From positions 12,779 to 76,778 of IMG/VR virus record IMGVR_UViG_3300021168_000355: a stretch of DNA of 64,000 nt; one strand, 5' to 3'. Of this stretch, positions 58,933 through 62,419 are shown in pieces. Numbering within the stretch: position 1 is the stretch's first letter; each line of letters starts with the position of its first letter. The notes under the pieces were generated by a model, which saw nothing but the letters and a program-made list of their open reading frames with translations, searched no databases and had not been told where the DNA came from. A program made the position numbers and the translations under genes. The stretch comes from a virus.

Positions 58933-58961
58933 TTGACTGGAATTATTTTTTGCGCTATTCT
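58933..58961 (+). promoter_or_regulatory. sigma70-type promoter
   Basis: TTGACT-N17-TATTCT. Confidence 0.65.
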
Positions 58962-58999: not shown

Positions 59000-59887
59000 A
59001 TGACTGCCCACGCCCACTTCAACAACGGTCGAATCCTCAGCGAAGAGGAATTATTTAAGTTCGCGCCATCTATTTTCGGCGACACGGCGAGTCCTGAGCG
59101 ATCGGATAAGTTCAAAGCAATTCCCACCATCGAGGTTCTACGGGGACTATCGAAGGAGGGTTTTCATCCCGTCTCTGTTCAGGAGCAGGGCGTCCGTGCT
59201 GCGAACCCCCAGCGTCGTCCCTGGACGAAGCATATGCTCCGACTTCGCCGCTTCGATGATCAGGTCGAACGTCTCAAGGTCGGTGACACGATTGCTGAGG
59301 TCATCCTCAAGAACGCCAACGACGGTACAAGCGCCTACGCATTAATGGCGGGTCTATTCCGAATTGCGTGCTTGAACGGAATGGTCGCCAATACAGCAGA
59401 CCTGGGGGAACTGAAAGTTCGCCACACTCTCAATGACCCCAACCCACGTGCAATCGTTGAGAAGGTGATCGAGGGATCGTATCGGATTGTTCGGCACGCC
59501 GATGACGTTCTTGAGGCGCCGCGTCTGTGGTCGCAGCGGAAGCTTTCGTCGTCTGAGGCCTATTCTCTCGCCGCGCAAGCCCATCACCTGACGTTCACCG
59601 ACCCGGACGGCATAGCTCGGACCCCCATCAAGGTCGAGCAACTCCTGACCCGTCGGCGTCAAGTCGATGCTGGGACGGATCTGTGGACGACATTCAACGT
59701 CATCCAAGAGAACGTCCTGAAGGGCGGGCTCGAGGCTGAAAGTGTCACCCACAGCGAGCGTTGGGGCACGGTTCGCACTCGCACCAGAACTCATGCGATC
59801 GGGGCAATCGACCGCTCCACCAAGCTGAACAAGGACCTGTTCACTTTGGCTCGGGATGTGTTCAATCGGCTGGAGATGGCGGCGTGA
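59000..59887 (+). CDS. DUF932/DUF945 protein
   Basis: APSIF...RSDKF..IPT..VL..L..EGF.P; KHMLRLR; NANDGTSAY.L.AGLFR.ACLNG; DLWTTFNVIQEN. Confidence 0.88.
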   Translation: MTAHAHFNNGRILSEEELFKFAPSIFGDTASPERSDKFKAIPTIEVLRGLSKEGFHPVSVQEQGVRAANPQRRPWTKHMLRLRRFDDQVERLKVGDTIAEVILKNANDGTSAYALMAGLFRIACLNGMVANTADLGELKVRHTLNDPNPRAIVEKVIEGSYRIVRHADDVLEAPRLWSQRKLSSSEAYSLAAQAHHLTFTDPDGIARTPIKVEQLLTRRRQVDAGTDLWTTFNVIQENVLKGGLEAESVTHSERWGTVRTRTRTHAIGAIDRSTKLNKDLFTLARDVFNRLEMAA

Positions 59888-60099
59888 TCATTCGTAAGAA
59901 CCCAGTTGACCATTGTTTCCTCGTATCAATGGAACGACGCGCACGTTGCGTTGGTGAGTGTGGAAGGTGGCTTGTACCTGGCGAATTGGCATGGTCTTAT
60001 ATGGCAGCGCCAGTTGACGGGAACTACGTCGAATGCGGCCAGTGCCGCTATGGAGAGGAACCAGAGGTCGAACCAAAACCACAGATCGCGACAACGTAA
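59884..60099 (+). CDS. Small zinc-ribbon protein
   Basis: GTGA overlap with DUF932 stop; C..EC...C..C. Confidence 0.5.
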   Translation: MIIRKNPVDHCFLVSMERRARCVGECGRWLVPGELAWSYMAAPVDGNYVECGQCRYGEEPEVEPKPQIATT

Positions 60100-60170
60100 G
60101 GTCGAAAGCTAAGGGTCCGATCCCCTTAGCTCGCGGTGTAAGGCACCGCCTGACGAGACCGTCAGTCCTT
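60100..60170 (+). ncRNA. Hammerhead ribozyme, type II
   Basis: GGUC-GAAA-GCUAAGGG/CCCUUAGC-UC-GCGGUG/CACCGC-CUGACGA-GACC: full catalytic core, three paired stems, and a loop I (UAAGG) / 3' CCUU pseudoknot. Confidence 0.9.
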
Positions 60171-60182
60171 GAGGAGGCCCAA

Positions 60183-60317
60183 ATGGGTGATGAAAGAGAA
60201 GAGGAATTGAATACTCCCCCGCCTGTAAAAGCGGACGAACAGCCCAAAGAGGAAACCGTTGTAGCGTCGCCACCCGAGGAAAAGTCTGAGGAGAAAACAG
60301 ACGATTCCGCCGCGTAA
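60183..60317 (+). CDS. 44-aa acidic Pro/Glu-rich peptide downstream of the ribozyme
   Basis: GAGGAGG RBS at 60171; MGDEREEELNTPPPV... Confidence 0.6.
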   Translation: MGDEREEELNTPPPVKADEQPKEETVVASPPEEKSEEKTDDSAA

Positions 60318-60419
60318 AGCGTAAGCCTGTTCACCTGGGCAAAGGGAGGGGTTGCGGTTCGGTAGAAGTCCGATTGAAGGCCCTGCATTGAGCCCCGCCG
60401 CGACATTTTTGAGGATAGT

Positions 60420-61630: not shown

Positions 61631-62419
61631 ATGACGATTTATGAGGATCCCGCTAAACTTGAGGAGAAAAGCCGGATGAATCCATCTTCTGTGTTGGTTG
61701 TCTTGTCGGGAGGACAGGACTCGACAACCTGTTTGTTCCATGCGATCCATTCCCCCACTGTGTTCAATCGAGTGGGCGCCCTATCATTTGACTATGGGCA
61801 GCGACACTCCCGAGAATTGGAGAGTGCCGCTTTCGTCTATGAATTGGCGCAGCATTATGTTGAGCAGGGTATCCATATGGAGCCTTACCGTCATATAAAG
61901 AAAATGGGAAACATCTTTGAGGGCAACTCGCCTTTGACGACTGATCACCCATTAGAGGAATATGCCGACGTAACGGAAATGAACGCGAAACTCCAAGATC
62001 GAGTGGAGTTGACGTTTGTGCCGGGACGCAATGCCGTTTTTCTCGCCCTCGCCTACAGCTACGCCACAGCCTGGGGGTTCGATTCCATCATGACTGGAGT
62101 CAATGCTGCGGATGCGGGCAATTATCCAGATTGTACACCAGAGTTCGTTGCGTCAATGGCAGAGACAATGGCATTGGCAACTCGCCAACGTATCAAGATA
62201 TACACTCCACTACAAGGGAAAAGCAAGAAGGAGATTGTTGAACTTGGGAATGGGCTCAACGGATGTATGAGAGCAATGGCTTTTACTACCACAGACTATG
62301 CAGGCGCCTATCCCCCACTTAACAATCATGCTTCGGTCTTACGTGCGAGTGGATTCACCGAAGCTAATACTCCAGACCCACTGATGGAACGGGCGAGGTT
62401 TGAGGGATTGGTCAAGTAG
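61631..62419 (+). CDS. queC: 7-cyano-7-deazaguanine synthase (QueC-like)
   Basis: SGGQDSTT PP-loop, FDYGQRH..E, TFVPGRN..FL, YPDC, TPL...K motifs. Confidence 0.92.
   Translation: MTIYEDPAKLEEKSRMNPSSVLVVLSGGQDSTTCLFHAIHSPTVFNRVGALSFDYGQRHSRELESAAFVYELAQHYVEQGIHMEPYRHIKKMGNIFEGNSPLTTDHPLEEYADVTEMNAKLQDRVELTFVPGRNAVFLALAYSYATAWGFDSIMTGVNAADAGNYPDCTPEFVASMAETMALATRQRIKIYTPLQGKSKKEIVELGNGLNGCMRAMAFTTTDYAGAYPPLNNHASVLRASGFTEANTPDPLMERARFEGLVK

Follow-up and report, generated by a model that had tools for sequence, protein, structure and literature searches.

An intact type II hammerhead ribozyme lies on the + strand of this DNA from an uncultivated phage, between the stop codon of one non-structural gene and the Shine-Dalgarno (SD) sequence of the next open reading frame (ORF). 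It is found in the 64-kb stretch that was analysed as a whole and that is called the window below. The motif, its placement and its membership in a family of phage ribozymes are established, as are the conservation and the covariation of a pairing in which the RNA at the 3' side of the ribozyme masks part of the catalytic core. Judging from the sequence, it is probable that the hammerhead is functional and that polycistronic phage RNA cleaves itself after C60132.

Architecture of the ribozyme

Since stem II is an open helix, with stems I and III both closed by loops, the topology is that of type II. Stems II, III and I measure 4, 9 and 7 bp, which gives 20 pairs without a mismatch, and all invariant positions are kept (Table 1). 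The initial annotation had called an intact type II hammerhead at this place, and every element that it listed was found at exactly the coordinates given. In stem III, GCUAAGGG (60108-15) pairs with CCCUUAGC (60123-30) around a 7-nt loop, UCCGAUC, while the strands of stem I are GCGGUG(U) at 60133-39 and (G)CACCGC at 60143-49. The pairs that adjoin the core are intact as well, namely G60157-C60103 (10.1-11.1), G60133-C60149 (1.1-2.1) and A60107-U60131 (15.1-16.1).

At H17, a position that is not G in hammerheads, the window copy has C60132, as do 190 of the 206 phage type II copies among the matches listed. The 15.2-16.2 pair is G-C here, a combination present in 3 of these 206 copies; C-G is found in 197 of them (again among the matches listed). 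Because of this rare pair the cleavage triplet is CUC, and the rate of cleavage may be lowered. On the other side, A60099, the final base of the upstream TAA, occupies position -1 with respect to stem II, where A is found in 98 of the 106 members of the subclass described below, among the matches listed.

A descriptor that demanded the core, H17, the A15.1-U16.1 pair and minimal stem lengths gave this site as its sole type II match, not only in the window but also in the entire 76.8-kb virus record, and it is the only credible site there. Descriptor scans for type I and type III hammerheads gave none in the window or in the 76.8-kb record.

Table 1. Position of the ribozyme, its parts and the flanking features in the window
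Feature	Position	Strand	Basis or remark
DUF932 gene, leading cistron on the 5' fragment	59000..59887	+	Pfam PF06067, E 3e-29; phrog_12094
Small conserved zinc-ribbon-like gene (CxxxC...CxxC)	59884..60099	+	five homologs, 66-80% identity
Type II hammerhead ribozyme (stem II open; I and III loop-closed)	60100..60160	+	sequence, descriptor scan, covariance model R1
Stem II 3' strand GGUC (11.4-11.1)	60100..60103	+	partner GACC 60157-60160
Core G12 A13 A14	60104..60106	+	invariant across alignment A1
Stem III hairpin, A15.1-U16.1 and 8 more pairs (9 bp)	60107..60131	+	A15.1-U16.1 is A60107-U60131
C17, predicted scissile bond C60132/G60133	60132	+	hammerhead numbering; cleavage predicted
Stem I hairpin GCGGUGU-AAG-GCACCGC	60133..60149	+	6 Watson-Crick pairs and U-G, triloop AAG
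Core C3 U4 G5 A6 C7 G8 A9 (CUGACGA)	60150..60156	+	
Competing masking hairpin, CUGACG (60150-55) with CGUCAG (60160-65), loop AGAC	60150..60165	+	MFE fold
Stem II 5' strand GACC (10.1-10.4)	60157..60160	+	
CCUUG, earlier suggested as pseudoknot partner of loop I UAAGG (60139-43)	60167..60171	+	6 nt after stem II
SD GAGGAGG (60171-77), 5-nt spacer, ATG 60183	60171..60185	+	
Putative 44-codon ORF, acidic and rich in Pro, leading cistron on the 3' fragment	60183..60317	+	no family match

A subclass with a short loop I

A search with the Rfam Hammerhead_II model, which had been suggested as a check, came out negative. With Rfam 15 no hammerhead was matched at the gathering cut-off in the window, nor at E<=10 on 501 nt or 101 nt, and RF02276 gave no match across the whole virus record. 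Viral contigs were scanned with a sequence-only pattern, GTCGAAA...TC...CTGANGAGAC. This returned at least 120 loci, at least 100 of them with all three stems, frequently several per contig and each shortly before an SD and a start codon.

The phage type II hammerheads at these loci split into two subclasses, one with a long and one with a short loop I. In the long-loop subclass, a loop I of about 10 nt pairs with a tail directly after stem II, which is the classic pseudoknot, and such copies are detected by RF02276. The short-loop subclass is marked by a stem I hairpin of 17 nt whose tip reads GU-NNN-GC, by a 4-bp stem II of the GGUC/GACC type and by an A before stem II. The window copy fits this second subclass, with GCGGUG-U-AAG-G-CACCGC, GGUC/GACC and A60099.

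At gathering, RF02276 recovered none of the 18 short-loop copies in the loci tested. On contig L112, where nine such copies occur, it gave scores of 24-36 bits (cut-off 37) to seven and left two unlisted. Because these positive controls from the subclass are missed too, the silence of Rfam reflects a limit of the model and its seed and does not speak against the motif. The G15.2-C16.2 pair probably costs the window copy its remaining RF02276 bits. Since a whole, common type II subclass sits under the Rfam cut-off, standard annotation undercounts phage ribozymes, and the window copy has gone unreported. The nine copies of L112 are crowded into 3 kb (L112:2145-5089), each followed within a few nucleotides by GGAGAA and a start codon, and all of them under that cut-off.

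An alignment of 50 short-loop hammerheads from unrelated viral contigs (A1), from which the window was excluded, was the basis of a three-stem covariance model, R1. In the 64-kb window R1 gave one match only, at 60095-60172 on the + strand, over its full length (1-74), with 49 bits and a rough E of about 4e-14. The stems of A1 are 99% paired, with many double changes, a figure that is partly circular because the descriptor had chosen the sequences for pairing; no such circularity affects what the pattern scan yielded.

A pseudoknot between loop I and the tail 3' of stem II has been described in "a majority" of type II hammerheads (PMC3088659). The initial annotation had assigned one to the window copy and regarded it as characteristic. 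The complementarity is indeed there (UAAGG with CCUUG), but as a characteristic feature it does not stand, being at chance level in the short-loop subclass: among the matches listed, a loop I/tail helix of at least 4 bp occurs in 38% of short-loop copies versus 40% with swapped tails, and in 98% of long-loop copies versus 70% with swapped tails. Because the short-loop frequency does not exceed that of the swapped-tail control, the pseudoknot is not supported as a conserved feature here. Nor was any conserved tertiary contact identified for the short-loop subclass.

A tail that can mask the core

A pairing between the GUCAG of the tail and the CUGAC of the core had been overlooked. The window copy reads CUGACGA-GACC-GUCAG, that is, it has an NUCAG tail right after stem II, and C7 is paired with G60161. 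The resulting hairpin sequesters C3 to G8 as well as C10.4, and it is mutually exclusive with the active fold. It is this hairpin, and not the hammerhead, that RNAfold predicts in the MFE structure. In a 106-nt context, and with nearest-neighbour energies that hold no tertiary term, the masked fold has -42.0 kcal/mol and the best fold with the hammerhead stems -36.5 kcal/mol, so that the mask is favoured by 5.5 kcal/mol. The pair probability is 0.93-1.0 for the mask versus 0.0003 for stem II, and the hairpin, which is conserved, is predicted to dominate at equilibrium. Because the masked fold is favoured and the mask is complete just 5 nt past the ribozyme, the RNA could be mostly uncut.

The tail is repeated in relatives, as CUGACGA-GACC-GUCAG and as CUGAUGA-GACC-AUCAG. 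When counted over all 50 sequences of A1, the masking helix is 53.6% paired, the same as in shuffles. There is no signal across A1 because only a subset has the mask, hence the use of a targeted pattern test. In the first, unbiased scan a helix of at least 5 bp from C3 was present in 14 of 58 short-loop copies, compared with 5% when the tails were shuffled, and in none of 101 copies of the long-loop subclass (in both cases among the matches listed). A second scan, for CTGANGAGACCNTCAG, gave at least 36 distinct matches that lie downstream of a full hammerhead. In 36 CTGANGAGACCNTCAG matches with a hammerhead, among those listed, N7 pairs with its partner as U-A in 29, as C-G in six and as U-G in one, without a single mismatch. 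The Fisher p for this covariation is 3.6e-6, and 1.2e-5 once copies with a common stem I are collapsed. Matches without a hammerhead have mixed combinations of N7 and partner (among those listed). N7 is free in the active structure, and its covariation therefore points to selection that acts for the competing hairpin.

Among the papers listed by a literature search on alternative conformations of hammerheads, in phage or polycistronic contexts, none dealt with a conserved natural self-masking tail. It may tentatively be proposed that the GUCAG tail makes for a bistable ribozyme, here and in about a quarter of the subclass, either by gating or tuning self-cleavage or by acting as a product trap that makes cleavage irreversible. 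Such a gate might be responsive to translation, temperature or Mg2+. The tail-core pairing with its N7 covariation offers a cheap and concrete test of whether phage hammerheads are regulated or constitutive.

Gene neighbourhood and conservation

From about 30.6 kb to the end of the window the + strand carries non-structural genes, while the structural genes are on the - strand. The hammerhead is placed in sense orientation within this run, with a stop codon immediately upstream of it and a strong SD and the 44-codon ORF immediately downstream, as the initial annotation had it. Its description of an "early operon" was an inference, and the promoter that it set at 58933 is a 9/12 match to the consensus. 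Between DUF932 and the ribozyme no terminator-like site was found on the + strand.

The genes are closely packed: the GTG start of the zinc-ribbon gene overlaps the DUF932 stop (GTGA), and its own TAA abuts stem II. The five homologs of the zinc-ribbon protein have 8-27 additional residues at the C-terminus; in the window copy the frame stops exactly at the start of the ribozyme. The SD begins 10 nt beyond the ribozyme and 6 nt beyond the mask, and the layout of hammerhead, SD and start codon is common to most related copies. Because the site lies between the stop codon and the SD with its ORF, cleavage after C60132 would split the transcript as had been described. However, the gene immediately upstream of the cut is the zinc-ribbon gene (59884-60099) and not DUF932, which had been named as the message to be separated.

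The 44-codon ORF is followed by a gene for a 367-aa protein, for which no relatives were found among viral contigs, and then by a QueC-like gene (61631-62419; Pfam PF06508, E 1e-45), two genes downstream. The latter points to 7-deazaguanine DNA modification in the phage.

A DNA similarity search against phage records gave one short, unrelated match only, and among viral contigs the zinc-ribbon gene has no relatives. Seven relatives of this gene occur in metagenome contigs. The ribozyme accompanies only the near-identical one, on contig L301, and the more distant relatives (53-69% identity) are without a hammerhead. L301 is 96.5% identical over 5.3 kb. In it the 78-nt element is unchanged, four SNPs (at 60069-60092) fall within the 31 nt that precede the element, the spacer at 60325-60418 is rearranged, and the 44-codon ORF has a single difference, which is non-synonymous. 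This sole syntenic copy is identical to the window element, and no covariation is seen among orthologous copies; stem covariation is abundant across the subclass, but in sequences pre-selected for pairing.

The two strains are 3.5% divergent overall, and about 870 nt of the window (59200-60068) are identical to L301 between SNP-rich flanks. This suggests recent recombination across the block of DUF932 and the zinc-ribbon gene. A second structured RNA was considered at 60318-60419, where a spacer separates the 44-codon ORF from the gene of the 367-aa protein, and was rejected: its folding z-score is +1.96, no better than shuffles, and L301 has a 52-nt deletion and many changes there.

With the strict descriptor, no hammerhead was found in 59 loci of DUF932 relatives. 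R1 recovered variant copies that the descriptor had missed, namely two that bracket the DUF932 gene of contig L013 and three upstream on contig L014. The association of hammerheads with the DUF932 neighbourhood recurs, and by comparison of these sequences the element is apparently gained or lost between relatives. The two L013 copies (L013:2884-2959 and L013:3847-3922; R1 55 and 49 bits) form a near-identical type II pair that flanks the DUF932 gene of a related phage. They have C for the near-invariant U4 (CCGAUGA) and a compensatory change in stem II (GGCC/GGCC versus GACC/GGUC). Their tails, CUCAUC and CUCGUC, pair with G5 to G10.1 (GAUGAG), which amounts to a shifted masking register. Another viral contig, L137, bears two masked hammerheads and also a 66-nt Rfam tmRNA match (L137:6081-6146, - strand; 53.6 bits). 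This match covers both ends of the model only, and thus represents a tRNA-like domain without the tag region.

Proposed course of cleavage and alternative explanations

Given transcription through the site, a + strand message spanning DUF932 and the zinc-ribbon gene would contain the ribozyme. This RNA would cut itself between C60132 and G60133 in the infected cell. The 5' product, with the DUF932 and zinc-ribbon message, would terminate in the 9-bp hairpin of stem III and carry a 2',3'-cyclic phosphate. The 3' product would start with a 5'-OH flush on the 7-bp stem I hairpin, followed by the CUGACG/CGUCAG hairpin, the SD (60171-77) and ATG 60183. Two hairpin-capped messages would thereby arise from a single polycistronic RNA, with no need for a host nuclease. 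Both ends would probably be poor substrates for the end-dependent RNases of bacterial mRNA decay, and the products may be stabilised in this way. The mask would have a different role on either side of the event. Before cleavage, it could serve as a brake, in competition with the active fold, that determines which fraction is cut; after cleavage, it could serve as a product trap in which the core is locked once the 5' piece leaves, so that religation is prevented. Circular or spliced RNA products were also considered and were rejected, since the genome has a single ribozyme.

It could be imagined that the ribozyme is regulated and not a constitutive processing site, with the masked state (CUGACG/CGUCAG) as its default and with a cut only once the mask has been opened. 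A 30S subunit on the SD 6 nt downstream would be a candidate for opening it, by unwinding the 3' arm, while a ribosome that terminates at the abutting TAA would cover stem II and prevent the cut; cleavage would then report the translation of the flanking cistrons. The predicted dominance of the mask at equilibrium is in line with this, as are its conservation, with N7 covarying, in about one in four members of the subclass, the masking of the core in another register in both L013 copies (CUCAUC with GAUGAG), and the position of a stop codon against stem II and of an SD 6 nt past the mask. Nevertheless, we consider such a default-masked switch unlikely. The spacing between mask and SD differs widely among relatives, and coupling to the SD therefore cannot hold in general; the mask is missing from about three quarters of the subclass; a plain role as product trap accounts for the same conservation; and no trigger was identified.

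It is very unlikely that the element is a decaying or inactive relic, that is, a family member by descent whose rate of cleavage has ceased to be useful through the rare G15.2-C16.2 pair, the lack of a tertiary contact and the dominant masked fold, and which persists only on account of its youth or of an mRNA-stabilising effect of its hairpins. It is, admittedly, the sole copy in the genome, more distant relatives of the adjacent gene do not have it, its CUC triplet is rare, and the masked fold is favoured. Yet a relic would not be expected to retain, as this copy does, each invariant position and 20 intact base pairs. Moreover, the element is identical in a strain that is 3.5% divergent, masked copies of other phages retain perfect cores, and CUC sites are cleaved efficiently by engineered hammerheads (PMC11875169).

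A mere chance resemblance, in which ordinary intergenic hairpins happen to bear GAAA and CUGACGA, is effectively refuted by the shuffles and the covariance model: although 6 of 300 dinucleotide shuffles of the 64-kb window (about 2%) contain a descriptor match at minimal stem lengths, and although Rfam is silent on the site, none of the 300 reaches stems of II>=4, III>=6 and I>=6, the independent model R1 recovers the site at the E given above, and the site shares with the subclass details that form no part of the descriptor (A at -1, the GU-NNN-GC tip, the GUCAG tail and the position between stop codon and SD), so that chance as its origin is negligible.

Comparison with known hammerheads

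Self-cleavage of a polycistronic phage RNA, as preferred here, has precedents. Type II hammerheads were described by Perreault et al. in 2011 and are frequent in prophages, with copies that flank genes (PMC3088659). Prophage hammerheads cleaved polycistronic constructs of about 2 kb in vitro, and the cutting of long phage RNAs into gene-length messages was proposed for them in the same work (PMC3088659). Cleavage in vivo has been reported for type II hammerheads in Desulfovibrio vulgaris (PMC8782182). The phage-encoded, host-independent mRNA processing put forward in the initial annotation is thus not a novel idea, since it had been proposed together with in vitro cleavage in 2011 (PMC3088659). 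The window element adds another phage to the many with intercistronic hammerheads, known since 2011, for which the biological purpose is at the stage of proposals.

With the bacterial and prophage type II ribozymes (PMC3088659, RF02276) the window copy has in common the core, the permutation, the intergenic placement upstream of a start codon and the proposed role. In contrast to typical type II members (RF02276), it is without the typical loop I/tail pseudoknot and has a 3-nt loop I and a G15.2-C16.2 pair; its tail has the core, and not loop I, as pairing partner, and it falls below the RF02276 cut-off. The same intercistronic placement, among genes of non-structural or anti-restriction type, is seen in the prophage clusters of Agrobacterium tumefaciens (ardA), Clostridium scindens and Azorhizobium caulinodans (PMC3088659). 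However, the window phage has a single copy in its 76.8-kb genome and no array, and the neighbour is DUF932. In the haloviruses HF1/HF2 a 5' end was mapped within 3 nt of the HHphage cleavage site, and a halovirus hammerhead copy sits 13 nt before a start codon (PMC3088659). HHphage is a structural variant of archaeal viruses that needs high Mg2+ (PMC3088659), whereas the window copy has a canonical core.
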